Positions 19,362 through 62,777 of a stretch of DNA of 64,000 nucleotides are shown piece by piece. The stretch's first letter is position 1, and every line of letters starts with the position of its first letter. Source of the DNA: a virus (taxonomy: Duplodnaviria; Heunggongvirae; Uroviricota; Caudoviricetes); IMG/VR virus record IMGVR_UViG_3300038968_000013, positions 49,317 through 113,316 of that record; one strand, written 5' to 3'. The translations under genes and the position numbers were made by a program. The notes under the pieces are model-generated. The model saw only the letters and a list, made by a program, of their open reading frames with translations, was not told the DNA's origin and ran no database searches.

Positions 19362-20351
19362 TTACAGATCCTTAATGATATCAATGATACCTTGCGCGGA
19401 TCGTTCCCACGTAAACGCTTGAAGGTCTTGGTGAGCACGCTTTCCGACGATGAGCGAGTTGTCGTAATCGTGCATCACCGCTGCCATCTGCCTTGCGAGG
19501 CCCGGAAGATCCACGATCGCAAACTCGTACTTGCCTGTTGGGTTCGTAACTGCGGGGCCACCCATTGACGCTTCGATCCGCTCTAGCTTGTGCGGAGCAA
19601 AGAAGCAGTTACGGCGATTCGCAAACTCCAGCATCCCAGAGTACTCAGTGGTAATCGTGGGAAGCCCAGAGGACATCGCCTCGGCAACGGTCAAACCCCA
19701 GCCTTCGCCCATGGTCGGCATCACGAAACAGTGCGCCGAATGATACAGCTCGATCATTTCCTCGCGTGTAACATTTCGCCCATCCGTGATGGTGTTGCCA
19801 CGCTTGAAAACGTTCTGAAGATCTGGGTTGTGCGAGGTAGTTTTGATGTACAGTTCAACGAAGGGAATCTCTTTGAAGAAGTGATCCCAGACCACTCCTA
19901 GATTCCACCACCCCTTACGAGCATTAAAGGCGCCCACCCACAAGAAACGAAACTTCTCGTTCTGATCTTGTGAAATCGAGCGCCTTACGTAGGGGACATG
20001 ATCTGTCCCGAGAGGCACCACCTCCACGCGCTTCCCCGTCCACTTACGAAAGTATCGCTGGCAGAACTTGGAAGGCACGATGATAAGGTCGGCCTTGCGC
20101 ACCCGATCAAGCACATCTTGCGTGCAATCGGGTGTTTCGTACATCGTGATCAGAACATTAAACTTGCCTTGAAAGTGCTCAAACGCGTGCGGAGCACAGT
20201 AGGAAATATGAATGGGGCTGCGCCCGGAGATCTGAACCCCAAGCTTTTGAAACGCGGACTTCGTTCGAAAGATCGCGTTGTGATACCCGTAGTAGTTCCC
20301 GCCAGGAAGGTACTCGCCTTCCTTCGTGAACCACGAAACACTGACTGCCAC
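19362..20351 (-). CDS. glycosyltransferase, GT-B fold (GT4-like), paralog of 6048..7130
   Basis: EGWGLTVAEAMSSGLPTITT motif. Overall collinear with the 6048..7130 protein. Confidence 0.8.
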   Translation of the reverse strand: MAVSVSWFTKEGEYLPGGNYYGYHNAIFRTKSAFQKLGVQISGRSPIHISYCAPHAFEHFQGKFNVLITMYETPDCTQDVLDRVRKADLIIVPSKFCQRYFRKWTGKRVEVVPLGTDHVPYVRRSISQDQNEKFRFLWVGAFNARKGWWNLGVVWDHFFKEIPFVELYIKTTSHNPDLQNVFKRGNTITDGRNVTREEMIELYHSAHCFVMPTMGEGWGLTVAEAMSSGLPTITTEYSGMLEFANRRNCFFAPHKLERIEASMGGPAVTNPTGKYEFAIVDLPGLARQMAAVMHDYDNSLIVGKRAHQDLQAFTWERSAQGIIDIIKDL

Positions 20352-20694: not shown

Positions 20695-22020
20695 TTAGCT
20701 GTAGGTCTTAGCGACCGACCACGAACCCGTGTTAGATCCATCAGCCTGATTTACGCAGACGAAAGCGAAACGCTCCATCACACGCATCACAAGCTCGCCA
20801 GTGGTGAAACCGGCGTGAGGCGAAATGTCGATCGACATACGCTTGCGATCACCGAAGATCGCGTGCTTGAAGTCACCGTAGATCAGGAACTTCGAGCCCG
20901 AAGTGTCATCCGCAGCCTTCGGCATCACTGTCGAAGTGTAAACCGGACGACCAAGCAGACGGCGAGGCGAGGCTTCCGTTACAGAAGACACGTTGTCCGC
21001 AAGGTTGAACGGACGACCGTTGTTGTCGACCATAGCGGTCTGGATCTGGTTCCACACGTAGTTGGACATGACCCATACGCCATTCTCCTGAAGCTTCTCA
21101 TCGACCTTATTGTAGATTGCAATCAGGTCGTTCCACTTGATGTTCTTGAACGAGGTAGAACCGGAAGGAAGGGTATGGATACCCGCCGTACCAGTCTCGA
21201 CCATTACACCAGTGAACGGAGTGTGGTCGGCACGAAGCACCTGGAAGTCTTCCGCAAGGGCCACAGCCTCTGCGAATACGTCGACCAGGAAGGACATCAG
21301 ATCCGGAGTCGAATCCTCGTCCACTTCGAGCGAGATGTTGTCCAGAGCCATGAGGCGAGTTGCCACCATCTCTGGACGGGTGAACGCCTGAGTCGACTGA
21401 CCTACGCCACTCGCTTCAGTTGTCACCGCCTTGTTTGCGCCAGACGACGTGATGTTCTGGCCTACAAGAGTCGTAGGGCCATAGGTCGCGACCGGTAGAC
21501 GCATGACCTCACGGGTCATCGGCATGATGCGGCAGAGCTTGCGAGCAAGACCAAAGTTGCTCACAAGGCGGATGATTTCGTTGGCCTGCTCCGGTGGAAC
21601 AAGCACACCACCGCCCGCGTCAGGAGTACCGCCAGTGTAGACGTTACCTTCCTTCTGCGTACGTGCGTTCTTCCAGAAATCATACTTCTCATCGAGGCCG
21701 CGAGCCTTGCGAGCAAGGTCCACAACCATCATTCCTACACCCTCACGGGCGCGCGCACGGGCATCTTCCCCATTAGCAGCGGTGTAGTGCTTTTCACCGC
21801 GAGGAAGCTGCTTGTCCATCTCGTCCATGCGCTTGTTGACGTTCTCTAGAAGCCCACGGGTCTGCTCAAGGGCCGCACGAACTTCGGCGGTTTCCTTATC
21901 AATCGCAGCTCCCTTGGACTCAAACTCACGGAGGGCGGTTTCTACCTTCTCCGTCTGCTCAAGAACCGCATCCTTCAGCTTGTAAAGGGGGTTCTCGTCC
22001 TTAACATGAATGTCAGCCAT
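20695..22020 (-). CDS. major capsid protein, HK97 fold, with N-terminal coiled-coil (delta/scaffold-like) domain
   Basis: 441 aa. The N-terminal 100 aa are coiled-coil. The position after the protease and the composition are typical of HK97-family MCPs. Confidence 0.75.
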   Translation of the reverse strand: MADIHVKDENPLYKLKDAVLEQTEKVETALREFESKGAAIDKETAEVRAALEQTRGLLENVNKRMDEMDKQLPRGEKHYTAANGEDARARAREGVGMMVVDLARKARGLDEKYDFWKNARTQKEGNVYTGGTPDAGGGVLVPPEQANEIIRLVSNFGLARKLCRIMPMTREVMRLPVATYGPTTLVGQNITSSGANKAVTTEASGVGQSTQAFTRPEMVATRLMALDNISLEVDEDSTPDLMSFLVDVFAEAVALAEDFQVLRADHTPFTGVMVETGTAGIHTLPSGSTSFKNIKWNDLIAIYNKVDEKLQENGVWVMSNYVWNQIQTAMVDNNGRPFNLADNVSSVTEASPRRLLGRPVYTSTVMPKAADDTSGSKFLIYGDFKHAIFGDRKRMSIDISPHAGFTTGELVMRVMERFAFVCVNQADGSNTGSWSVAKTYS

Positions 22021-23659: not shown

Positions 23660-25957
23660 TTACTCGTCGTCATCGCCGCCCGCAGGGACGGTGGTGCAAC
23701 GACAGTTGCAAACATCAGCTGCCGACCCGAGGACATCACCTGGCCAGCGAAGCCCGTTACTGAAGGTTTCCCCAACAACGACAACCTCATAGTCGATATC
23801 GTGTCCAGCACGAACGAGGTCATCTTGACTTGAAAGCCAGCCATGGCGCTCGACACCCTGCTCTGCGTATTCAAGCGAACGCGCCTCGTTTACCGCCGAC
23901 AGCATTTCTGTCCGCGCGATGCGGTTTGCCCGCGAGGTTGTGAGGGTCATCACTTCCTTCGTGGCATCCTCCAGCGCCGCCGCTTGCTGGTTGATCGTAA
24001 GCCCTTCCATAGCGGTCTCAGCGAGCGAGGCCTGCAGCAGTTTACGTACCGTCTTTTCAATGTCCTGTGGCACCTGGCGAATCTGAATGACGCGCGTATC
24101 CAGCAGCGTCTTCATCTTGTGCGAGTCAATGGCGATGGGATCTTCGCCGAGCGTCATCGCGGCAGACTTGATACCCAGCTCAATGGCTGCCTTGTAGTGC
24201 TTACGCGAGAACTCCTCGATCTGGCTCTGCGCCTTTGGAACGTCAAACATGATGCCGTCAAGAAGATCATCAAGCACACCGCGCTTCTGCATGCGTACCG
24301 TCTTCTTGACCTTAGCGAGCATTTCCTTCCGCAGCCCGTAGAAGAAGTTATGCAGCTTGCGATAGAAGGCGTGCTCTAGCGGCACCAGCATGCGCTCAAA
24401 ATCCTCGGCCAGCTTGGCGCGGCGAGCTGAGCGAGTCTTGCCCTTGAAAGACTTCTCTCCGACCGCCTTCTCGACGGCCTTGTCCTTCTTCTTTTTCTTC
24501 TTGGCGCTCTCTACGGCGTCGTCAATTTCCTTCTGTTCCTTCTCGTCGTCATCCATCACGGCGTCATCAGTGGCGCCGTTCGACTGATCCTCAAGAAGGA
24601 GATCGTCCCCAAGCCCTGCCGGGTCACCAAGACCCATCACCATCGCCATGCTGGCTTGCTCACCAGCAAGCATACGGGCAGGAACGAGGTTGTTGGCCAC
24701 GAGCCAATCGTCACCCCATTCGACACTTTCGAAGCCAAGTGAAAGCACCCGATTGATCTGGTTGATCGGCCAGCCCATCTGGAAGAACTTCATGGCAATC
24801 TCTGCCTTCTCTCCCATGTCCTCGCGCATCGCGGGGATCTCATCGATGGCAAACCCAGCAACCTTCCCTGGTGCGTACGACTTCACCAGCGTCTTTTGCA
24901 GCACAGACGACAGACGGTTGATCTTCGGCACGATGTTGTTTTCGAACAGCATGCGCTGCGCCGACTCAACACCATCACGGCTCAGTCCTGCGCCCTGGAA
25001 GTCATTTAGTAGGGGCACAGGTACACGGAAGCAGGCAGCGATCTCCTGACGGGACCACTTACGCCCTTCCACAAAATCCATTTCTTTCTGCGAGAGACCA
25101 AGCTCTTCGAGCTGCATCCCCCCGTGAACAATGGCGACCTTGTGAATGTTGCGCGGCCCACCCCACTGGTCCTCGATACCCATACGAATCTGACGCATCT
25201 GCTCTTCCGTAAGGAAGATGTCATCCGGACGTGTCTCCGGTGGCGTGAAGGTCAGCTTCAGTGACGGGCTTGATCCGTTCAGAAAGAACTTCTCGTCGAA
25301 CACCTGGCGCGCAATGTCCGCACGAATAGACTTCATCGCGGCCTGCAGCGGCCCAATGCCCATGATCTGATTGTGTGATGCGGGGTCGGTGTACTTGAGG
25401 TGAATCAGCGAATCACCAGGGACGTTAAACGCCACCTTGCCAATCTTGACGGACCAGCTAACGAACTTCCCTGACGCATGCTCATAGTTCGGCGACACAT
25501 GCTGCACCCCGAGGGCGAGCAGTGAGCGAGGAAGTCCCCGCGAGTTGGGAAGGTCTGGCATGATCCAGGCATTCCCAGCCGCCTCTAGGTAGAGCGCAAT
25601 AGTTTCGATGAACTGACAGAAGTCGGCGTAGATGCCGGGGTAGGGGTCCGCAAGGAGGTCGAGCAGCGGGTCTTCCTTCACCGCAATCGGCAGCCCATCT
25701 TCGTCAGGCTGCTCTAGGTACATACGGTAGGGAACAGACGCCATCGCCTGCGAAATGATCGTCATACAGGCGTAGGTTGTGCTGTGATTGGAAAATGGGT
25801 CGCGGTAACCGGACTCGCCGCCGTAGGTCTGAATCTCACGACCCTCAATAAAGGCACGCTGGATTTCAGCTAGGCTCGTCGAACGCTGCTGTGGTGCAGG
25901 CGTCTTCGGTGCGAAGAACGGAAGGTTCTTTATAGTAGTTCGAAGGCGATCAAACAT
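23660..25957 (-). CDS. portal protein fused to MuF-like minor head protein domain
   Basis: 765 aa. The N-terminal ~430 aa are portal-like. A poly-Lys linker (KKKKKKDK) separates them from a C-terminal domain ending RAGHDIDYEVVVVGETFSNGLRWPGD, typical of Mu gpF / SPP1 gp7 domains. Confidence 0.75.
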   Translation of the reverse strand: MFDRLRTTIKNLPFFAPKTPAPQQRSTSLAEIQRAFIEGREIQTYGGESGYRDPFSNHSTTYACMTIISQAMASVPYRMYLEQPDEDGLPIAVKEDPLLDLLADPYPGIYADFCQFIETIALYLEAAGNAWIMPDLPNSRGLPRSLLALGVQHVSPNYEHASGKFVSWSVKIGKVAFNVPGDSLIHLKYTDPASHNQIMGIGPLQAAMKSIRADIARQVFDEKFFLNGSSPSLKLTFTPPETRPDDIFLTEEQMRQIRMGIEDQWGGPRNIHKVAIVHGGMQLEELGLSQKEMDFVEGRKWSRQEIAACFRVPVPLLNDFQGAGLSRDGVESAQRMLFENNIVPKINRLSSVLQKTLVKSYAPGKVAGFAIDEIPAMREDMGEKAEIAMKFFQMGWPINQINRVLSLGFESVEWGDDWLVANNLVPARMLAGEQASMAMVMGLGDPAGLGDDLLLEDQSNGATDDAVMDDDEKEQKEIDDAVESAKKKKKKDKAVEKAVGEKSFKGKTRSARRAKLAEDFERMLVPLEHAFYRKLHNFFYGLRKEMLAKVKKTVRMQKRGVLDDLLDGIMFDVPKAQSQIEEFSRKHYKAAIELGIKSAAMTLGEDPIAIDSHKMKTLLDTRVIQIRQVPQDIEKTVRKLLQASLAETAMEGLTINQQAAALEDATKEVMTLTTSRANRIARTEMLSAVNEARSLEYAEQGVERHGWLSSQDDLVRAGHDIDYEVVVVGETFSNGLRWPGDVLGSAADVCNCRCTTVPAGGDDDE

Positions 25958-25968
25958 CCAGGTGGTCC

Positions 25969-27441
25969 TTACATAACTCGGATTGACGCCGAGTAGTCAT
26001 ACTGTCGTTGGTTGGTGACCGTCGCAAAAGCTAGTAGTAGCGCGTCGGCACGATCGGGTGAGGGCAGTCCTCGCTTGAGAAGTTCATCCTTAGTTTCGAC
26101 ACGCCGTTGCGTTCCGTTACGTGCATAACGCACTTCCCGGTTACACAGCTGGTGCTGTAGCTCCTCGTCTCGTTGAGGGATGGAGATGCGGTCCATTGCA
26201 AGCTTACCGTCCACGAACCAAAGCTCATCTCCCCGACTGGCATAATGCTTAGGGTTCCGTGGCTTTGATCCGTTGTTAATTCCAGAGACAGTCCATCCCT
26301 GACTACGGAGAGCATCAATCACTCCTCCACCAATCCCGACTTCATCAACCACAATCAGCGTGTCATCCTGGCACTTCAGGAAGGCGTCTGGATCAAGGTC
26401 AAACTTATTCGGGTTCCCAAAGGGCTGCCGCCACCACATGGTTGCCGCCTGTACCGTCATCCCCGCAACTGACATCAGGTCGAGGCGCTTGTAGGTCTGA
26501 ATGTCCAGCACAAGGTTGCCGCGACGAACGAGGATCACGGTTTCACAGTCCCCGTACCGGGCAACGTCTACCCCAATCTGAATCGGGAGCAGCGGCATAT
26601 CCTCGCAGAAGCGGTCAAATGCCTGCTCCACCTCATCGTAACCGAAGATCGTCTTTCCCTCTGCGATCATCGGGAAGAGCCCATGGACCTTCGCCTGCAC
26701 AATCGGGGAATCTTCACCGTGTAGATCAATCAGGCGCTGGCTCGCTTCGGGGTTCACAAATGAAGACTCCCGTTGATCTACGTGCCGTGTAATCCAGTAC
26801 TTTTTGTATGACGGCTTGGTGAAGATCTCGTAGAAACGACCCGAGCGCCGTTGCGGGTTTCCAATGCAGAGACAGACGTTCCGAATGCCGCCCGTGAGAG
26901 TCGCCATCTTCGCGTCGAATTGTGCATCATCGACCCCGCTAGCCTCACTGATGACAATAAGAAGGTAGTCAGCATGGAGTCCCTGACCAGCTTCGGCATG
27001 GGCGTCCCCGGTTACCGCTGAGACACGTTTAGCCGCGATCGACTGGAAGGCCCGCCACCGCTCACCATATCCACGCACCTTTATTGTAGAGGGAGTCCAC
27101 TCCAGGAGCTGCGGTAGGTACTCAGAGTCGGAAATAACGCGTTGGATCTCCATCCAGAGCGATACTTGGATTTGCTGGGCACTCGCGGACATCGCCGCAA
27201 CCTTCGCGTACGGATGCACGAGCAGGAACCACACAATGGCCACCGACGCGAGGAAGTCTTTACCGACTCCTGTTCCCGCCGCGACCGCGACAAGATCGTT
27301 CGTGGCAAGAGACATCAGTACTTCCTCTTGCCACTTATCGAGCTTCTTTACTTGAGCAACTTCATAGGCAAACTTGACGGGATCTTTGCGGTAATCTTCC
27401 CATCGTGCCTGTAGTAGCTCTAGATCACTACTTTGACTCAC
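25969..27441 (-). CDS. terminase large subunit
   Basis: 490 aa with a P-loop-like AAGTGVGKD. The length and the position upstream of the portal fit TerL. Confidence 0.75.
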   Translation of the reverse strand: MSQSSDLELLQARWEDYRKDPVKFAYEVAQVKKLDKWQEEVLMSLATNDLVAVAAGTGVGKDFLASVAIVWFLLVHPYAKVAAMSASAQQIQVSLWMEIQRVISDSEYLPQLLEWTPSTIKVRGYGERWRAFQSIAAKRVSAVTGDAHAEAGQGLHADYLLIVISEASGVDDAQFDAKMATLTGGIRNVCLCIGNPQRRSGRFYEIFTKPSYKKYWITRHVDQRESSFVNPEASQRLIDLHGEDSPIVQAKVHGLFPMIAEGKTIFGYDEVEQAFDRFCEDMPLLPIQIGVDVARYGDCETVILVRRGNLVLDIQTYKRLDLMSVAGMTVQAATMWWRQPFGNPNKFDLDPDAFLKCQDDTLIVVDEVGIGGGVIDALRSQGWTVSGINNGSKPRNPKHYASRGDELWFVDGKLAMDRISIPQRDEELQHQLCNREVRYARNGTQRRVETKDELLKRGLPSPDRADALLLAFATVTNQRQYDYSASIRVM

Positions 27442-35242: not shown

Positions 35243-35653
35243 TTAACGTCTTCGGCCTTTAGTAGCGTCTTCGCCCGGTGGATCATACTCGACTACGAAT
35301 TCCTCCGTGGGCTTGCCGAGTTCTGCTGCGCGGTCGCGGGTCCAACCGCTTCCGTAAGATTTGGATCGGGACCAGGCGATACGAACCAGCCGCTCACATC
35401 GTTCCGCGATTTCTCGATTTCGAGACATATATCCGCGAAGTTTGCCTCGATTACCCCACTGCGCGACTTCGGGTAGAAAGATACATGTAGGGATTCCGCG
35501 TCGCGTGGCGGCTTCAGCTGCCAACGTGTCAACGCCCAGAGCCCCGCCAGATACCACCTCAGAAGGCTGATATTTGTCCAGAACCTCTTCCACAATCCGT
35601 TTCGCTTCTTCACTCTCACCTAACGCCACCGATCCTACGATTGCTAGTCGCAC
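35243..35653 (-). CDS. SLOG / DUF2493-like Rossmann protein (DprA-LOG superfamily)
   Basis: MRLAIVGSVALG...VVSGGALGVDTLAAEAA matches the pattern. Confidence 0.45.
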   Translation of the reverse strand: MRLAIVGSVALGESEEAKRIVEEVLDKYQPSEVVSGGALGVDTLAAEAATRRGIPTCIFLPEVAQWGNRGKLRGYMSRNREIAERCERLVRIAWSRSKSYGSGWTRDRAAELGKPTEEFVVEYDPPGEDATKGRRR

Positions 35654-36061: not shown

Positions 36062-36303
36062 AAGAAAGGTGCCCCTTGCAGTATTGCGCCTCCGGTTTCA
36101 GCCGTCGCTTACTCCTGCTAGTTTTGATAAGGAGGAGGGGCTAGCTCTAAAGATTCCCGTACTCGATACACCAGTCGTACGCGTCGCGGTGCTCTACACG
36201 ATCCTGCCAGTCTTTTGGCTTCTCGGTATAGCGACGTTCGCGGTAGGTGTTGCCCTTGCCGCAGACCGGACAGTAGGCATACGTGATGTGGTACCAGTGC
36301 GGC

Positions 36304-36660
36304 CTAGGCGTGGGCATAGATGGTTTCTTTCCAGGCGAAAGGTAGGTCGTAGACGAAGTGGTAACGTTGCTTCAGGATCTCGACCATGCGCTTCCTGCCA
36401 TCCTCGTTGATCGAGTGGCAGATCACCGACACGCCGAACTTTGCGACGTCAGGGTTCCCGATCATCCACTGCGCGAGACCGGTGCCGTCCATTTCCGTGC
36501 CGAGGTCGTGATCGAGCATGATCACGTCGTACGGAAACGACATCAGCAGCCGTTGCGCGTGGTAGGGATTCTTCGCGTAGTCCGTCTCGTGGTGTGGATT
36601 ATTCCACGAGTACTCTTTGAACCGCTCGACCTCATCGTCCACAAACAACACCCGCATCAC
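36304..36660 (-). CDS. orphan response-regulator receiver (REC/CheY-like) domain protein
   Basis: MMRVLFVDDE...YDVIMLDHDLG shows the acidic pocket and phospho-acceptor Asp context of REC domains. No output domain is present. Confidence 0.5.
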   Translation of the reverse strand: MMRVLFVDDEVERFKEYSWNNPHHETDYAKNPYHAQRLLMSFPYDVIMLDHDLGTEMDGTGLAQWMIGNPDVAKFGVSVICHSINEDGRKRMVEILKQRYHFVYDLPFAWKETIYAHA

Positions 36661-36944
36661 ACCACCCCGTACTCGATCTTCAGGTTCTCGTCGCGCATCA
36701 TGTCATCCACGCGCGCATCGATTGACTCGTACCCACGAAGCCGCGCCGCTGTTTCCATCCGTAGCCAAGTTTGGAATTGCTTACTCTTAGCCATGCGGAG
36801 AAACGCGAGGCGCTTGTTCTCGTGCTGAGAACGCGTATCCTGCGCCGTGCCTACAGCTCCGCTAAAGACGGTGGCGACACCGACAGGCTGAAGACGTCTT
36901 CTGCTTCTTCTGGCCACCGTGACCAGATCCACGGAAGAATTCAA
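36657..36944 (-). CDS. hypothetical protein
   Basis: 95-aa ORF. Confidence 0.25.
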   Translation of the reverse strand: MNSSVDLVTVARRSRRRLQPVGVATVFSGAVGTAQDTRSQHENKRLAFLRMAKSKQFQTWLRMETAARLRGYESIDARVDDMMRDENLKIEYGVV

Positions 36945-37092
36945 ACTCTAGGTCTTTCGACCCCACACTAAAAAGTAGCTCTTTCATGCTTAGTCCGTTG
37001 TTACTGCTACCGCGATGTCGATAATCGCCTCACCGAGGCAGAAGAACATTTCCGCCACCTCGATCAATCCTCGCCACACCCATCCGCCGCGC

Positions 37093-37347
37093 TTAGGCTT
37101 TTTCATCTTCCCAGACGATCTCGGTTGCCCCATCGTGCCCATGGATTGCTTCAAGCACAGAGATGGAGTCGTAGATTGCCACACAGCTGGTCGGCTTTAA
37201 CCAGCTGAGGGCGCATTTCCCGTTCGTGAATTCGATTCCTTCCGCAACGACACCAGTTCCCGATACTCCGGAGATATCTTCGTTGCGTTGAAGCCAGAAT
37301 CTCTTGTTGGTCACCTTAGGTTTGTTACTGGTTTTCGATCGCCCCAA
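37093..37347 (-). CDS. hypothetical protein
   Basis: 84-aa ORF. Confidence 0.25.
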   Translation of the reverse strand: MGRSKTSNKPKVTNKRFWLQRNEDISGVSGTGVVAEGIEFTNGKCALSWLKPTSCVAIYDSISVLEAIHGHDGATEIVWEDEKA

Positions 37348-40599: not shown

Positions 40600-40798
40600 G
40601 CGTATTGGTACAGAAATAACGTACTACACGATGTGCGATCGATGCTACGCGGTATTCGCGTTGTCCTTGCTGTAGCACTCGTAGCAGCGCACCGGGTACC
40701 CACACCAACGGTGTGTCAGTGTTCCACACCGACAGCATCGTTTACGGCGGTACCCATAGCGACAGTCTTCGCAGGTTGCTGGATTGTGTTTCATAGAG

Positions 40799-40872
40799 CG
40801 GAACCGAGGGGGATCGAACCCCTAACCTTTCCCGTGACAGGGGAGCGTTCTAGCCAATTGAACTACGGCTCC
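40799..40872 (-). tRNA. tRNA-Asp (GTC)
   Basis: Manual fold. Acceptor GGAGCCG/CGGTTCC, D-arm GTTC..GAAC, anticodon loop CTGTCAC and T-arm AGGGG TTCGATC CCCCT. Confidence 0.6.
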
Positions 40873-40877
40873 GTGAG

Positions 40878-40951
40878 AGTCGATACCCGGATTCGAACCG
40901 GGACCGCTAGTTTGGAAGACTAGCATGCTAACCGTTGAACACTACATCGAC
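40878..40951 (-). tRNA. tRNA-Gly (TCC), probable
   Basis: Manual fold. Acceptor GTCGATG/TATCGAC, anticodon stem CTAGT/ACTAG with loop CTTCCAA, and T-arm CCCGG TTCGAAT CCGGG. The D-stem is weak, and the 5' end overlaps the ORF 40928..41182. Confidence 0.45.
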
Positions 40952-42867: not shown

Positions 42868-43223
42868 ACCAACACCCACGCCAGGAAGAAGTAGGTCAGC
42901 GCATGAAGGTACTGATCGAACCCCAGCAAGATCCAGAACCACTCGCTATTGTTCGGCAGTAAGCCGTAATGCGCACCAACGTTCATCTTGGCCCAATCGA
43001 TGTGGTAGTGAGCTACCCCGTCGACCACCATCGACAACATAGCGAGCGTCACGCTATCGCAGCACGAGAGCACAACCCAGAACGTTGCCAGCGCATGCAG
43101 CCCCGCGTGGAGAATTCCGCCAGGGTGACCGTACGTACCCTTATTGGTGTACATGTACGGATGCGCCTGCATCGGAAAGTCCACGATGAAATGCTTCGTG
43201 AATAGCCAGAAGAGTAGCGTCAT
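42864..43223 (-). CDS. polytopic membrane protein, His-rich
   Basis: 119 aa with 3-4 hydrophobic helices. Confidence 0.4.
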   Translation of the reverse strand: MTLLFWLFTKHFIVDFPMQAHPYMYTNKGTYGHPGGILHAGLHALATFWVVLSCCDSVTLAMLSMVVDGVAHYHIDWAKMNVGAHYGLLPNNSEWFWILLGFDQYLHALTYFFLAWVLV

Positions 43224-43954
43224 TAGCCCTCCATCCCCATGTCATACCCCGGATGATCCGGAATCAGGCTACCGAGATATGCTCGGTCCTGCGTGAAAAC
43301 CGGAGGACACCCATTTGTTCCCCAACCATGCGACAGGCACTCGCGCCAATACTGCTGCACACGACCGCGACGAAAGCCTTCCGGATGATTGTTCCAGTTG
43401 TCACCCTTCGCGTGAATCATGTCGTGTAGGTCGGGCGACTTCTTCCCGTGCAGTTCCTTGTGCGAGTAGTAGTGCTGCGCCAGCATCTGCAGGGAATTGC
43501 GTTCCGCATCCTGCTGCCGCCAGATGAAGTAGTTCATGACCTCGGTGCGATCTGGGATCACGAACACGCGCGCATCGAAGACAGCCGCCATGTCGACGCC
43601 CCAGCACCGGTTGAACGCGACCGATGCCGTTGCCGCCGCGATCGAGCACATTTTCTGCAGGTTGCCGTCGAACCACGCGTCGGTCTGAATCGAGTCGAAG
43701 TCCGTCAGGAGTAGCGAGATTTCGTCCGACTGCGTGAAGGCGAATTGGGTACCCTGAATGCTTTTGCAGAGCGCCAACGCGGTGACGTCCATCGCGTTCA
43801 TGAAGCCCTTATCGTATGGCTTCTCCATGTGACGAGTCAGCGTGTGAAACGCTTTCCCGTCGACACGGATGACGGTGTAGGTGCGCCGAGGAAGGGAAAT
43901 GCGGTACCGATCTTCGTACTGCTCCTTCATGCGATCACCTAGCGAGTCAGGCAT
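43223..43954 (-). CDS. tRNA-His guanylyltransferase (Thg1-like protein)
   Basis: YEDRYRISLPRRTYTVIRVDGKAFH, EKPYDKGFMNAMDVTALAL and AFTQSDEISLLL align with the Thg1 family blocks (..VVRLDGRGFH.., ..KPNDERALNLMN.., ..YGYSDEYSFVF). Confidence 0.65.
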   Translation of the reverse strand: MPDSLGDRMKEQYEDRYRISLPRRTYTVIRVDGKAFHTLTRHMEKPYDKGFMNAMDVTALALCKSIQGTQFAFTQSDEISLLLTDFDSIQTDAWFDGNLQKMCSIAAATASVAFNRCWGVDMAAVFDARVFVIPDRTEVMNYFIWRQQDAERNSLQMLAQHYYSHKELHGKKSPDLHDMIHAKGDNWNNHPEGFRRGRVQQYWRECLSHGWGTNGCPPVFTQDRAYLGSLIPDHPGYDMGMEG

Positions 43955-54582: not shown

Positions 54583-54711
54583 TTACTGTCCTCCCATCCC
54601 TACGATGATGTACTTGAAGTAAGCCGCGCCCGAGATAAACCCGAGCGCGACTCCCACACCCACCGCCACCCCAAACACCACCGACCGAAAAAACGTCTTT
54701 ACGTTGTCCAT
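54583..54711 (-). CDS. small membrane peptide
   Basis: MDNVKTFFRSVVFGVAVGVGVALGFISGAAYFKYIIVGMGG. The start overlaps the SPFH gene stop codon. Confidence 0.3.
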   Translation of the reverse strand: MDNVKTFFRSVVFGVAVGVGVALGFISGAAYFKYIIVGMGGQ

Positions 54712-55796
54712 TACTGTGCCTGCTTCAAGTCGACCATGGGCATCGCGGGACCGGAGACGAGGGAGAGTTTTCCATCCCACTTCCGAATACGTTCCCACTC
54801 GACCAGTGTCGGCGTGATTGACTTGGCGAGGATTTCGTTTGCTTGTGCCTCGGCCTTGGCGCGGATCAGCTGTGCATCGGCTTGTCCTTGAGCGAGCGCC
54901 TTAGCCTGGTCACCCTCGGCTTGCTTGGCGCGCACCATGTTCTCGGCTTGGATTGCAGCCTGTGTCGCGGCGATAGCCTGGTTGACTGCCTGCATGACCT
55001 TATCGTCGACCCGCAGTCCCGAGACGAAGGCGAACGATTCCACCTTGATACCGTCCGGTGCCATACGAGTCTGCAGCTCCTTGAGCACGTTGGCCTCTAG
55101 CTCGCGGCGCCCTTCTCCGAGAATGAGCATCGTGTCCATCGTCTGGCCATAGTGGGCCACGATGTCACGAATCTGAGAGCGCATGTATGTGTGTGTGATG
55201 CGTCCGATGTCCTGGCGGAACTTCACGAAGAGCTGCGGAATCTTCTCCGGTTCCAGCGAGTAGGCCAGGAAGACGTCGGCGTTCACGAGGCTCGACTGCT
55301 TCGAGTTGAACGTGATGCTCTCGTCGCCGGGGGACTCTGGGGTATCGTCCTTGGTGAATACCTGCTGCTGCAGGAAGATCGGGAACAGATGAATCTCGGT
55401 CTTGAAGGGGTTGTACACCTGAATGCCAGTAACGGCAGTCGCGTTAGCAACGCCCTTATCTGAGCCCCAGAGGTTCACCTTGACGCCTACGTAGCCAGGC
55501 GGCACCCGTGTATATCCACAGCCGCTACCTGTCAGCAGAAACGCGGACAGCGCCAGCGGCAGCAGCACGGCGGGGAACGATACCTTACCCACGTTCTCGG
55601 TGAGCCAGGCGAATCCCATGTAGAGTAGCGTCGCGGCCAGCATGAAATCGGCCAGACACACGAGCAGCCCAAAGATAGCGAGGAACGTGCTCTTCGCGGA
55701 CCACATTTCGATCCCGAGCGTCCACACCCCCACGACCACGAGTAGCGCGCAGATGACGCTACCTACGACTTGAACGAGAAACCGCAATCCACTCAT
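54711..55796 (-). CDS. SPFH/band-7 (flotillin/HflK-like) membrane protein
   Basis: N-terminal TM helices followed by an SPFH-like core, then an Ala/Gln-rich coiled-coil tail (AQAENMVRAKQAEGDQAKALAQGQADAQLIRAKAEAQA). Confidence 0.65.
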   Translation of the reverse strand: MSGLRFLVQVVGSVICALLVVVGVWTLGIEMWSAKSTFLAIFGLLVCLADFMLAATLLYMGFAWLTENVGKVSFPAVLLPLALSAFLLTGSGCGYTRVPPGYVGVKVNLWGSDKGVANATAVTGIQVYNPFKTEIHLFPIFLQQQVFTKDDTPESPGDESITFNSKQSSLVNADVFLAYSLEPEKIPQLFVKFRQDIGRITHTYMRSQIRDIVAHYGQTMDTMLILGEGRRELEANVLKELQTRMAPDGIKVESFAFVSGLRVDDKVMQAVNQAIAATQAAIQAENMVRAKQAEGDQAKALAQGQADAQLIRAKAEAQANEILAKSITPTLVEWERIRKWDGKLSLVSGPAMPMVDLKQAQ

Positions 55797-55822
55797 ACCA
55801 TCCTCCCCTTATTGTACTCGGT

Positions 55823-57544
55823 TTACTTAGCCTGCATTCGATACCGCAACTCCGACTCGTGCTGACTTCTCAGCGCGGTAAGGACTTGCGCAGAGTCGAT
55901 TGGAGTGTATAGCTCCCGAACCATGGCGACTCTTTCGTCCCAGCTGCGACTACGAAACGCCTCTGGCTTTTCGTACCATTCTTCGGGCACGTCGAAATCG
56001 CTAGCATTCGCGAGTACCGTATCGATAGTGTTTTTGATTGAACGTCCGGTGAAGTGTTCACTTTGCTTCCTGAAATCCTCGCACTCCATCCCGAGGTCGA
56101 GCCACGTATCCGCCATGTCAAAAGCGGGAGCCTTGTGCTTCGTCTGCGCCCTACGTGGACGGGACAGTGGCTCGTATCTCGTTGATGGAATCTTGACGAT
56201 ACCCTGTTTGGTGGCTTTGCGCAAGAGGAGCGCGATCAGATCCGCGTAATCCTCTGGCGTCTCCGGTCCCATGACTGGAAAGCGCGCGACGAATCGCTGA
56301 CGGAGAGCCGCGTCGGTGGCGGTCGGAGCATTCGTGGCTGCAATTGTGATGTATGAGCCCGAATAGGCTGAACCGACACCAGAGAAGAAATCCATCAGCC
56401 CCTTGAGAATGTCACGATCGCCGCCACCCATGCCGGGAGAGGAACGATCGCCACCCGCGAAGAGCAGATCCACGTCGTCGAGACACATGATCGAGAGACG
56501 ACCCGGATCTCTCAGGTCGTTCAGTAGATCATTTAGAAGCGTAGCTGTTTTGCCATACCATTCCGACTTCACGTCCGATGCACCCAGCGACTTGAAGTAG
56601 GTTGGCATACCGATTTGGTCAGCGCGACGCTGTAGCAGCGTCATCGCCATCCTCATGATACTGCTTTTACCAGTGCCCGGAGGTCCGTCCAGGAGGATGC
56701 TTTCGAGAATACCCCCCATTTCACAAAATGGATTCTTCCCGAGCTGTGGGTCGTAGCACGCGAGACGATCCATTTGCCGCCTGAGCTGTAGTACCGCAGC
56801 GTCGTTGCCGACGATCTCTTCCGGTTGAACCGGGACAAAGGAAACACTTGTAGCATCTTTTGCTTTCTCTACCGTTGTTCCCGTGATGGTGAACTTCTGG
56901 TATCGGAAGGTGACTTGATCGAGAGACGATCCGAGTGTCTTATGAGCACGGGCTTTAATCCGAGCTTGTTCAGCAACCCAGCTCCAGTAGTCGCGAGAAA
57001 TACTAAGCTCGTCGCCAACGATATGGACGATAGGATTGCCGTGCTGATCTTTTGCTTGAATGGCATCGATGTACCGTGCAAGGCAAAGCCCGAGGTCGCC
57101 GTCGATAGATCCACGGATATCTAGCTTCAGGATGCTTGTGTCGAGAGTTGCGAATTGACCTTCCCGACGTCGCAGCAGGCGAGCCGCTTCCACTTGAATG
57201 AAGCTCGCTGCTACGAACGTCGAGTAGGCAGAAATGAATGCTGCGCGTTCTTGAATCTCCGGAGAGATAACGCCACCGCGTGCTTGAAGCTCTTTGGCAG
57301 CCTCGCGCTGCCCGGTGCGTTCCATCAGATGGTCCACGAACCAGTAGTAGAAGCACACGGCTTGCCGAATGAGGAAAACGAGAGCCATTTCCTCAGGCAG
57401 GACTCGCCAGGTCTCTTGTGGCGAGAGGTCTTTCAGAATGTCTTCGAGGTCGCGTTCACCGTCGATCTTGGAGAGCGCCCGTTCGGCGGTCGCAATCCAC
57501 TTATCGAGGTCTTCAGCCTTGATGGGGAGGGCTTCGCGTTCCAT
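55823..57544 (-). CDS. AAA+ ATPase (classic-clade AAA domain) with ~330-aa N-terminal domain of unknown function
   Basis: Walker A LLDGPPGTGKSS, Walker B IMCLDDVDLL and sensor/Arg-finger region IAATNAPTATDAALRQRF. Confidence 0.7.
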   Translation of the reverse strand: MEREALPIKAEDLDKWIATAERALSKIDGERDLEDILKDLSPQETWRVLPEEMALVFLIRQAVCFYYWFVDHLMERTGQREAAKELQARGGVISPEIQERAAFISAYSTFVAASFIQVEAARLLRRREGQFATLDTSILKLDIRGSIDGDLGLCLARYIDAIQAKDQHGNPIVHIVGDELSISRDYWSWVAEQARIKARAHKTLGSSLDQVTFRYQKFTITGTTVEKAKDATSVSFVPVQPEEIVGNDAAVLQLRRQMDRLACYDPQLGKNPFCEMGGILESILLDGPPGTGKSSIMRMAMTLLQRRADQIGMPTYFKSLGASDVKSEWYGKTATLLNDLLNDLRDPGRLSIMCLDDVDLLFAGGDRSSPGMGGGDRDILKGLMDFFSGVGSAYSGSYITIAATNAPTATDAALRQRFVARFPVMGPETPEDYADLIALLLRKATKQGIVKIPSTRYEPLSRPRRAQTKHKAPAFDMADTWLDLGMECEDFRKQSEHFTGRSIKNTIDTVLANASDFDVPEEWYEKPEAFRSRSWDERVAMVRELYTPIDSAQVLTALRSQHESELRYRMQAK

Positions 57545-59246: not shown

Positions 59247-59328
59247 GAAAAATGACCCCGAAGTCATGCTAATTATGCATGAATACTCAGCCTCGATGAG
59301 CATCGGGGAGAGAAGCTGTTTCAAAAAG

Positions 59329-59411
59329 TACCGGTGACAGGATTCGAACCTGCAAGAGTTTCCCCTACTAGTTCCTAAGACTAGCGTGTACGCCAATGCC
59401 ACCTCACCGGC
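59329..59411 (-). tRNA. tRNA-Leu (TAG), class II
   Basis: Manual fold. Acceptor GCCGGTG/CACCGGT, anticodon arm CTAGT CTTAGGA ACTAG, a 13-nt variable arm and T-arm GCAGG TTCGAAT CCTGT. Collinear with E. coli tRNA-Leu. Confidence 0.6.
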
Positions 59412-61160: not shown

Positions 61161-62777
61161 TTACAGACCCTTCGCGAACTCCGAGATTAGCTGCGGGGTG
61201 GCAGTGTCGAAGCCCACCACGTCGAGCTGACCCGGATCGTTTGGATCTGCGATGGTGAAGTTGGTCGCAGTCATGCCGACCGTTACCATCTTGCAGTCCT
61301 TCTTGTTCATGCGCGTACGGAACTGGCGCAGAGCAGTGCTCGCGTGCGTGTTCCCGGCCCAAACCTCGTTGTCCGTGATGATCACGAAGCAATCGACGTC
61401 GAGGCTATGCTGCATCGCGTACTTCATTGCGACCGCACCGTCCGTACCACCGAAGTTGGCGTCCTGAGCAGCGCGCGCAGCATCACGGAGCGACATGCCC
61501 GGATGGATACGAAGATCCTTGAAGTGATGCGCGAATCCACCGATGAAATAGTTGCTCTCGGTGTTTGCGATCACGAGCGCCATTGCTGCTGCGCCGATGC
61601 ACGGAGTCAGACCCGGCACGCCCGCGATGCTGCCGCCCGCCATCGAGCCCGAGACGTCGACTCCCAGGAAGAAGTTCTTCCCGGTCGGCTCGACCGCCTT
61701 GAACGCGAGGTAGAACGCCTCGTCGAGGGCCTTGACCACCTTCTGCGAAGGTGTCCAGGTCTTGGACATGTCGCGGGCACCACGCCCCGCCGCGTACGTC
61801 AGGTTCGCAGCCAGGATCTGAATCGGATGCACACGGCCCTTGATGATCGCGTCCTGGTTGCCCAGAAGCTTCACGATGTCCTTCTCGGCCTGCGACAGCG
61901 GCTTCAGCAGTCCGACACGCGTCATGGTCGCCAGGTTGCGGATGACCATGGTGATCCCGCCCGTCGACAGCAGCGCCTCCCAAACCTCTGGAGCGTTCAG
62001 CAGCTGCGTCGGGATGATCTCGCGCGGCAGGTTGAAATCGGTGATCAGCTGCACCGCAGTCTTCACGTCGGCCTTGGTAGCCCCCGTGATTGCCTGCATG
62101 ACACGCGCACCCTCGATCATGTCCGGACCCTTGGTGAAGTCTTCCTTCTTCAGGGCGAACTCGAAGACAGCACGGCGCATAGCATCGTCGGTCTTCGGAT
62201 GCGTCAGACGCAGGAGGTCACGATGCGACCAACCGTCACGCTGCTGGTACTTCACGACCTGCAGTGCCAGCTTGTCGACCGGCTTGGCAAGGTACCAATC
62301 ACGCACCGCGTTCTTCAGCGCACGACCCCAGCCACGATACTGGCGGGCGAAGGCGATGAAATGGAACAGATGCGTTCCAGTACGCGCGACCTTGTGCAGA
62401 TTGGCGAGCGCGTAACGCTTCACGTCGTCGCTACCCTCGGAGGCAGCGTATGCCAGTGCCAGCAGCGCCGGATCGTTCTTCGGCGCGCGACCGTCCTGCG
62501 AAATCTGGACGATCTCGTTGACGAGACGCATGCCATCCTCCAGGAGGCACGCCTTGACGGCGTTCAGGCTCTCCTTGGTGTGCTGGCGCTGGTCAGCGTA
62601 GTACGTCCCACCCTCGGTGCCGAGGATCAGGAAGCGACGCAGATGCATCCAATGCCCGGTGGCAAAAACGTAACCACCCGCATGGTTCTTCACCTGGCGC
62701 GCGTCCAGCGGCTCCGACTCCGGAACCGGCTTCGAAATCTCGTTCAGTAGATAGCTTCCCTTGCGTCCCATCGTCAT
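61161..62777 (-). CDS. rsr: Ro60/Rsr ortholog (TROVE domain + C-terminal vWA/MIDAS domain)
   Basis: GGYVFATGHWMHLRRFLILGTEGGTYYADQRQ...ISQDGRAPKNDPALLALAYAAS aligns with the N-terminus of the Ro sixty-related protein (..RFLILGSEGGTYY..RAPKND). GVDVSGSM is a MIDAS motif. Confidence 0.85.
   Translation of the reverse strand: MTMGRKGSYLLNEISKPVPESEPLDARQVKNHAGGYVFATGHWMHLRRFLILGTEGGTYYADQRQHTKESLNAVKACLLEDGMRLVNEIVQISQDGRAPKNDPALLALAYAASEGSDDVKRYALANLHKVARTGTHLFHFIAFARQYRGWGRALKNAVRDWYLAKPVDKLALQVVKYQQRDGWSHRDLLRLTHPKTDDAMRRAVFEFALKKEDFTKGPDMIEGARVMQAITGATKADVKTAVQLITDFNLPREIIPTQLLNAPEVWEALLSTGGITMVIRNLATMTRVGLLKPLSQAEKDIVKLLGNQDAIIKGRVHPIQILAANLTYAAGRGARDMSKTWTPSQKVVKALDEAFYLAFKAVEPTGKNFFLGVDVSGSMAGGSIAGVPGLTPCIGAAAMALVIANTESNYFIGGFAHHFKDLRIHPGMSLRDAARAAQDANFGGTDGAVAMKYAMQHSLDVDCFVIITDNEVWAGNTHASTALRQFRTRMNKKDCKMVTVGMTATNFTIADPNDPGQLDVVGFDTATPQLISEFAKGL

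Follow-up and report, generated by a model that had tools for sequence, protein, structure and literature searches.

What does a phage gain from a small protein that consists of a receiver-type domain and nothing else? The question is raised by a gene at 36304..36657 on the (-) strand (stop codon 36304-36306) of a 64,000-nucleotide (nt) stretch of tailed-phage DNA, positions 49,317 to 113,316 of the IMG/VR record IMGVR_UViG_3300038968_000013, which we refer to as the window. The gene, called cREC here, encodes a stand-alone divergent receiver domain of 117 amino acids (aa). The original prediction, made from the letters alone, took the product for an orphan CheY-like receiver that could titrate or hijack host two-component signalling. 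We find that the gene is a further member of the already described cREC family, for which the published account offers an activity prediction only, and we lean towards the view that its product is an Asp-based phosphoesterase, or at least a specific nucleotide-phosphate-binding module, used in phage counter-defence or translation repair.

The open reading frame (ORF) described in the original prediction is indeed present, with both of its acidic motifs, FVDDE and MLDHDLG, and as a single domain without an output domain. It is also carried by a phage, as had been claimed, since the window contains portal, terminase and capsid genes. A mechanical ORF call begins at a GTG at 36660 and gives 118 aa (36304..36660, -), but three results make the ATG at 36657 almost certainly the genuine start. 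First, gene callers predict exactly the 117-aa protein that begins there on at least 13 other contigs from independent assemblies. Second, a relative with 95% identity (L088) has TAATG at the start position. Third, in the window the ATG overlaps the stop codon of the upstream gene as TGATG. In the 117-aa form, which begins with MRVLFVDDE, the motif FVDDE occupies residues 5-9 and MLDHDLG, in the context YDVIMLDHDLG, residues 47-53. The gene is under purifying selection; over residues 1-115, the comparison with L088 shows 13 synonymous codon changes and one conservative replacement (I94V).

To which receiver family does the protein belong? It matches the Pfam family PF20274 (cREC_REC), named 'cyclic-phosphate processing receiver domain', with 53 bits against a cutoff of 27 (E=5.5e-14) over profile positions 3-88 of 88, but stays below the threshold of the canonical Response_reg family PF00072 (16.4 versus 30.2 bits). 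Thus a significant receiver profile match, the check that had been suggested for the prediction, exists, but it is to the divergent cREC_REC model and not to the canonical one. All of the signature residues of cREC_REC (DD, R, LDHDL, G, HSxN and PFxW) are present in the window protein. The corresponding PHROGs family is phrog_1479, annotated as function unknown, and NCBIfam and PADLOC gave no match for the protein. A word-indexed homologue search with the single protein returned one match only, and we used instead HMMER on the full set of 1.8 billion cluster representatives, which yielded 410 relatives at E≤1e-3, nearly all of them stand-alone, 106-160 aa long and 30-45% identical. PF20274 is matched by 103 of the 104 relatives that we aligned, 53 of which also match PF00072 weakly. 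Similarly, all 110 matches in a profile search carry PF20274, and only three carry PF00072 in addition; none carries any other domain.

The public annotation of these proteins points elsewhere. Several relatives are labelled 'CheY-like chemotaxis protein' in their source, and the exact window protein (record P0252) is labelled 'DNA-binding response OmpR family regulator'. Both labels are incorrect: the protein lacks a DNA-binding domain and scores below the Response_reg cutoff. The main practical value of this analysis is the corrected annotation: the protein is neither OmpR-type nor CheY-like.

The protein nevertheless has a receiver fold, as judged from structure prediction. A single-sequence AlphaFold prediction was poor (predicted local distance difference test, pLDDT, of 62.9), and we relied instead on a model built from an alignment of 104 sequences (pLDDT 95.3, predicted template modelling score 0.89). 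Its elements follow the order β1-α1-β2-α2-β3-α3-β4-α4-β5, with helix 5 missing. The best 50 matches listed in a Foldseek comparison with the PDB were all receiver domains, among them Spo0A, RR468, PhoP, NtrX and CheY, with template modelling scores of 0.62-0.72 and identities of 15-25%; the best PDB sequence matches are receiver domains as well (3gt7_A, E=8e-4). In an hhalign profile alignment to Escherichia coli CheY, D7 and D8 correspond to D12 and D13 and D49 corresponds to D57, while S82 closes β4, like Thr87 of CheY. The acidic pair, the phospho-acceptor Asp and the Ser/Thr of a receiver are all present. The original prediction was therefore right about the fold and the acidic pocket, but not about the canonical class, which both the PF00072 score and the absence of a conserved switch Lys contradict.

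Beyond these shared positions, the conservation pattern departs from that of a receiver. Where the Lys at the end of β5 is expected (K109 in CheY), the protein carries D104-L105-P106, and Lys occurs in no more than 8% of the 104 relatives at any of positions 101-105. In the same relatives, D51 and H81 are invariant, R12, H50 and N84 are conserved at 93-99%, and D8, D49 and S82 at 93% or more; conservation is also high at G58 (at least 90%), G87 and P106 (both ∼88%), W109 (79%) and F107 (70%). Judging from the secondary structure, the conserved residues would lie on the active-site face of the receiver, at the C-terminal ends of strands or where α1 begins. Because the switch Lys and helix 5 have been lost while a polar pocket is fixed, we expect an enzyme or a specific ligand site rather than a generic phospho-switch.

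These observations bear directly on the idea that the protein is a CheY-like phospho-acceptor, which would act as a phosphoryl sink for host His kinases or Hpt proteins, or as a decoy that rewires two-component signalling. Compared with CheY and Spo0F (PF00072), the window protein is alike in its fold, with the acidic pair after β1, the acceptor Asp after β3 and a Ser/Thr (Ser82) after β4, and the weak PF00072 matches of half of its aligned relatives (53/104), the receiver domains that head its PDB matches (3gt7_A) and the OmpR and CheY-like labels of public pipelines could all be read in the same direction. However, the PF00072 score is sub-threshold, and the protein differs from CheY and Spo0F in lacking the Lys after β5, helix 5 of the α4-β5-α5 output face and an annotated kinase partner, and in the addition of R12, H50, D51, H81 and N84. 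Four of these added residues occupy the positions one and two after the acceptor Asp (H50 and D51) and one before and two after the conserved Ser/Thr (H81 and N84); these positions vary among true response regulators, and (near) invariance at all four is unexpected for a generic acceptor. Nor did we find a candidate phosphodonor: Pfam searches of essentially all ORFs in the window gave no HisKA, HATPase_c or Hpt domain, and the Pfam annotation of ∼100 cREC-family loci, which covers only part of their genes, lists no histidine kinase. In the annotated contexts, for which the listing of nearest neighbours showed 25 of 82 families, a kinase or Hpt partner is likewise not listed. In agreement with this, the describers of the family report that cRec is not found in any His-kinase system (PMC7824862). 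The proposal that the protein titrates or hijacks host two-component signalling thus finds no backing in its conserved residues, its missing helix or its context, and we regard a phospho-acceptor role as highly improbable.

The family was defined in 2021 by Iyer, Anantharaman, Krishnan, Burroughs and Aravind (PMC7824862), and, according to that paper, cRec retains catalytic aspartates, is linked to NAD+/ADP-ribose-processing enzymes, WYL domains and RNA ligases, and is posited, without experiment, to process cyclic ADP-ribose or 2',3'-cyclic phosphates, with phosphoesterase as the predicted activity. The window protein resembles the described family in its PF20274 score, its stand-alone phage setting, its acidic residues and the lack of a His kinase nearby, and also in its neighbours, which include an NAD+/nucleotide-type SLOG gene and RNA-repair and translation genes. 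It differs in that the window offers neither an RNA ligase nor a Macro, NADAR or WYL partner. It differs further in that its start codon overlaps the stop codon of a recoded gene for a GGQ release factor and that it lies close to a gene for the anti-CBASS protein Acb5, neither of which appears in the available part of PMC7824862.

We propose that cREC is a stand-alone branch of the receiver fold carried by phages, which would keep the Mg2+/phosphoryl pocket (D7, D8, D49 and S82) but has lost both helix 5 and the switch Lys and has gained R12, H50, D51, H81 and N84 as (nearly) invariant residues. The protein would be a small phosphoesterase that depends on a metal: D49 would be the nucleophile on a phosphate ester, in the fashion of HAD phosphatases, D51 would serve as the general acid/base, and a nucleotide-type substrate would be bound by R12, H50, H81 and N84. 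If the published family prediction is correct, the substrates would be 2',3'-cyclic phosphates, on RNA ends or nucleotides, or phosphates of the cyclic ADP-ribose type.

The comparison with HAD enzymes comes from D49-H50-D51, which makes an hhhLDxD motif that resembles HAD motif I. Receiver and HAD active sites are geometrically similar, and in HAD enzymes the Asp two positions after the nucleophile is the general acid/base that enables removal of the phosphate from the ester. By this analogy, cREC would share with HAD phosphatases the strand-end Asp nucleophile of the hhhhDxD motif (LDHD), an acidic Mg2+ site and a Ser/Thr phosphate ligand, but it differs from them in fold topology and has neither a cap domain nor a conserved counterpart of the catalytic Lys. 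Indeed, cREC is not a HAD protein by either of our measures, as it has no HAD Pfam match and the best 50 structural matches listed were all receivers.

One cREC homologue, P0071 (315 aa), is extended at its N-terminus by a domain in which a HAD-like DMDGV motif occurs. The only PDB matches of this N-terminus are 5'(3')-deoxyribonucleotidases, all of them weak (E 0.17-1.8), and PDB sequence searches with the extra domains of P0071 and of a second fused homologue, P0190, gave nothing significant. P0071 may be a nucleotidase-cREC fusion; if the apparent fusion of a HAD domain of the NT5C type to cREC is real, the HAD and cREC domains would do different steps.

Several points weigh against the phosphoesterase interpretation. 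The spatial clustering of the conserved residues was deduced only from their positions at strand C-termini, and the analogy between the DxD motif and the HAD nucleophile is our own. A literature search by family name gave the defining paper alone (PMC7824862) and no experimental study of any member. Pfam searches of the 64-kb window found no RNA ligase, polynucleotide kinase, RtcB, Macro, NADAR or 2H enzyme; the window is part of a phage contig of at least 113 kb, and these canonical partners may lie elsewhere in it. Finally, family neighbourhoods are very heterogeneous and most neighbours carry no annotation, so that guilt by association is weak for cREC.

To what extent do the family contexts agree with the proposed function? 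We surveyed 80 loci from IMG/VR, together with a dozen metagenomic contigs for which Pfam labels had been precomputed. The two nearest same-strand neighbours on either side (25 of 82 families shown) include HAD_SAK_2, NADAR, NAMPT, NAD-dependent ligase, Tad6, RF-1, EF-Tu, class I tRNA synthetase and an Rv2179c-like exoribonuclease. In one locus (L007), an RlaP gene overlaps the cREC start and an AAA/SMC-type ATPase gene is next, and sequence clustering identified this three-gene module in four loci. A 305-kb phage contig has an RNA_ligase gene beside cREC and a PARP gene nearby, and in an unrelated phage contig (L018) the tRNA-His guanylyltransferase gene thg1 lies ∼750 nt from cREC. These contexts agree qualitatively with the published picture of the cRec family, although the associations are sparse.

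In the window, cREC is part of a tightly packed string of (-) strand genes, which consists of a 152-aa ORF, acb5, a possible 38-aa ORF, the gene for the GGQ mini-release factor, cREC and a gene for a 56-aa CPVCG protein, and continues with two ORFs of ∼70 aa, a YAcAr SLOG gene, two ORFs of unknown type, an HNH endonuclease gene and an endonuclease VII gene. Scans for promoters and terminators between 33000 and 41500 did no better than on shuffled sequence, so that no transcription unit can be defined around cREC. The accessory cassette as a whole (Acb5, the recoded GGQ mini-release factor, cREC, a Zn-ribbon protein and the YAcAr SLOG protein) would fit counter-defence or repair of the translation apparatus better than two-component signalling.

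The best characterized family in the cassette is that of Acb5, anti-CBASS nuclease 5, whose 73-aa member is encoded two genes upstream of cREC (37093..37314, -; phrog_7499, 5.8e-29). The gene is labelled PF26761 on three contigs that carry it (L100, L101 and L186); this label comes from precomputed annotation, as the Pfam copy used locally does not contain the family. We found 511 Acb5 homologues, and PF26761 is present on all 120 listed. The window protein has all four residues that do not vary in the family, R10, W38, H58 and H60. In published work, R10, W38 and H61 are essential for Acb5, which cleaves 3'3'-cyclic GMP-AMP (3'3'-cGAMP) into 2',3'-cAMP and 2',3'-cGMP (10.1101/2025.07.12.664507). 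Acb1, Acb5 and the 2H phosphoesterases are, like cREC, small phage proteins, which serve counter-defence by acting on phosphodiester or cyclic phosphate bonds of nucleotides, as predicted for cREC; their folds are unrelated to that of cREC, and their activities have been demonstrated whereas that of cREC is a prediction. HNH homing-endonuclease genes have entered the cassette in close relatives; in one of these (L187:1037-1492), a single called product contains HNH plus Acb5 domains.

The neighbouring Acb5 gene suggests a division of labour, in which Acb5 would cut 3'3'-cGAMP to 2',3'-cyclic AMP and GMP and cREC would open those cyclic phosphates. The experimental products of Acb5 belong to the very bond class predicted for cREC, and the two genes share a strand, lie ∼440 nt from each other and keep this synteny in both close lineages. 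However, no cREC gene occurs within 6 kb on either side in 80 Acb5 loci and no Acb5 gene within 5 kb on either side in ∼92 cREC loci, and in the two phage contigs that hold both, the genes are 10 kb and ∼135 kb apart. The linkage is confined to the lineage of the window and its close relatives, and we consider such a partnership a very long shot.

On the other side of cREC, the gene for the 56-aa Cys-rich (CPVCG) protein (36147..36317, -) overlaps the 3' end of cREC by 14 nt. The sole family match of the protein is weak (phrog_1257, E=0.003), and the gene is kept downstream of cREC in close relatives (called in L098-L105 and L186). In the relative L088, an HNH homing-endonuclease gene (L088:384-920) takes its place directly after cREC. 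The 136-aa SLOG protein of the YAcAr type (35243..35653, -) is encoded in the same gene string, ∼650 nt downstream of cREC; it matches PF10686 (YAcAr) with 29.4 bits against a cutoff of 28.2 and DNA_processg_A with 28.3 bits, belongs to phrog_289, and has weak PADLOC matches to ShosA and PsyrA. Its gene is syntenic with cREC in four relatives (L098, L102, L186 and L188).

The gene directly upstream of cREC encodes a mini release factor with a GGQ/RF-1 domain, and it is divided between two frames (36657..36987, -). ORF A (36987..36862) ends ...GHGGQKKQKTSSACRCRHRL-TAG, and the RF-1 domain resumes in the +1 frame (36863..36657), whose TGA stop provides the overlap with the cREC ATG. At the junction, CGT CTT TAG C (CTT TAG C at 36861..36867, -), the sequence has the form of the CUU-stop-C heptamer of prfB. 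If Leu (CTT) is read, one T skipped and AGC decoded next, the product is 109 aa long, with the predicted junction peptide ...CRHRLSGAVGTAQDTR. The recoded product matches PF00472 across the junction with 55.6 bits against a cutoff of 35, whereas ORF B, the downstream part, alone gives only 16.4 bits (and phrog_3122 at 1.1e-12), and it is co-linear, without gaps, with the unshifted homologues of two other loci (L021 and L092).

The site is conserved. Six further independent assemblies carry CTT TAG C unchanged, and TTT TAG C is found in a seventh (L100); in a diverged lineage (L186-L189), in which 92 of 330 nt differ, the heptamer is unchanged. Moreover, the frame in which substitutions are tolerated switches at the site: before it, frame 0 shows 15 synonymous to 9 nonsynonymous changes (2:21 and 2:22 in the other frames), and after it, the +1 frame shows 22 to 19 (5:39 and 7:36 in the others). 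A sequencing error is excluded by the recurrence across assemblies and by this switch, and the same pattern, together with the conserved site, argues strongly against a pseudogene. Reassignment of the in-frame TAG is likewise excluded, as it is the +1 frame, rather than frame 0, that remains homologous beyond the site. To judge from these sequence comparisons, then, the mini-release-factor gene requires a conserved prfB-like +1 frameshift.

Most of the mini-release-factor family is unshifted: at least 489 metagenomic relatives exist, and the best 80 all lack the shift. An exact search of IMG/VR for the DNA pattern of the shift site gave three chance matches, and the exact 41-aa product of ORF A was absent from the records searched. 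The stop codon of the site is TAG, which is not read by release factor 2 (RF2), and there is no evident Shine-Dalgarno-like stimulator upstream. The shift site of prfB itself is CTT_TGA_C, with the consensus YTT_TRA_C (PMC3711429); according to one review, all CUU-stop +1 sites in RECODE belong to prfB, and UUU, the codon found in L100, is one of those that slip most readily after CUU (PMC10274946). The CUU UAG C site of the window may thus be a rare case of prfB-type recoding outside prfB, at a stop codon that RF2 cannot read. This frameshift is the most novel part of the locus, and the cassette of Acb5, GGQ factor, cREC and SLOG protein also deserves specialist attention.

The +1-frame stop of the mini-release-factor gene overlaps the cREC start, as TGATG or TAATG, in all three lineages seen, an arrangement from which cREC translation may depend in part on ribosomes that have shifted frame. 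This raises a more elaborate version of the phosphoesterase interpretation, in which cREC is the distal, translationally coupled cistron of the recoded mini-release factor and the pair forms a stress-gated module. The GGQ factor would be made only if termination at UAG fails, as it might when host release factor 1 (RF1) or the translation apparatus is compromised by abortive infection, and cREC would be gated likewise through the stop-start overlap. The GGQ protein would then release stalled ribosomes, and cREC would act on 2',3'-cyclic phosphates, opening those left on tRNA or rRNA after cleavage or those of the 2',3'-cyclic mononucleotides made by Acb5. We regard this full scenario as rather unlikely.

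Is catalysis needed at all? A non-catalytic binder, in which the pocket sequesters or senses a nucleotide immune signal, as the sponges Tad1, Tad2, Acb2 and Acb4 do, or in which cREC is a regulatory subunit of the GGQ mini-release factor, would also be a small, stand-alone and abundant phage protein, and cREC indeed lies in an accessory cassette beside a member of the proven anti-CBASS family Acb5; one of its relatives adjoins the Thoeris inhibitor Tad6. For the regulatory-subunit version, the overlap kept in three lineages suggests coupled synthesis with the RF-1 gene, and the two genes lie within ∼3 kb of each other in four unrelated contigs. They are adjacent in two of these, in the order cREC then RF-1 in one (L021) and on opposite strands in the other (L237); in the remaining two, the cREC gene is 3.2 kb away (L057) or 1 kb upstream (L236). 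The association therefore recurs in differing gene orders, but it is sparse, with cREC in 2 of 80 metagenomic mini-release-factor loci (L236 and L237) and RF-1 in ∼2 of 92 cREC loci, and the numbers are too small for significance. In addition, an invariant Asp of the nucleophile type, the DxD motif and two invariant His residues look catalytic. We consider a purely binding role unlikely, if clearly worth keeping in mind, and continue to favour an Asp-based phosphoesterase. For that predicted activity, the compact cassette, with a characterized anti-CBASS nuclease and a GGQ peptidyl-tRNA hydrolase domain, supplies concrete substrates and partners.

The remainder of the window is that of a tailed phage, with genes for the major head protein (20695-22020), the portal (23660-25957), the large terminase (25969-27441), a protease-like protein, endonuclease VII and an HNH endonuclease, and three tRNAs. 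Among GenBank/INPHARED phages, neither megablast with 12 kb nor tblastn with the cREC protein found a close relative, and the capsid protein is less than 27% identical to any GenBank/INPHARED protein. Two further features are related to tRNA and lie on the same strand as cREC: a gene for Thg1, a 3'-5' polymerase (43223..43954, -; PF04446, 3.5e-28), is ∼6.5 kb from cREC, and genes for tRNA-Asp and tRNA-Gly are adjacent to each other at 40798-40951 (-).

The third tRNA gene, for tRNA-Leu (59328-59411, -), lies 1.7 kb from a gene for a Ro60/TROVE protein with a vWA domain (61161-62777, -). An Rfam search of the window for Y RNA and other structured RNAs gave the three tRNAs only; a partner RNA of the Ro60/TROVE protein may have escaped recognition. 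The window also carries genes for glycosyltransferases (two GT9, one GT4 of the 'conflict' type and one GT2), a methyltransferase and a hexapeptide transferase, one of which spans 19362-20351 (-), and at least one gene of this group sits within the structural module. Finally, a gene for an SPFH/Band-7 protein adjoins that for an AAA ATPase at 54711-57544 (-).

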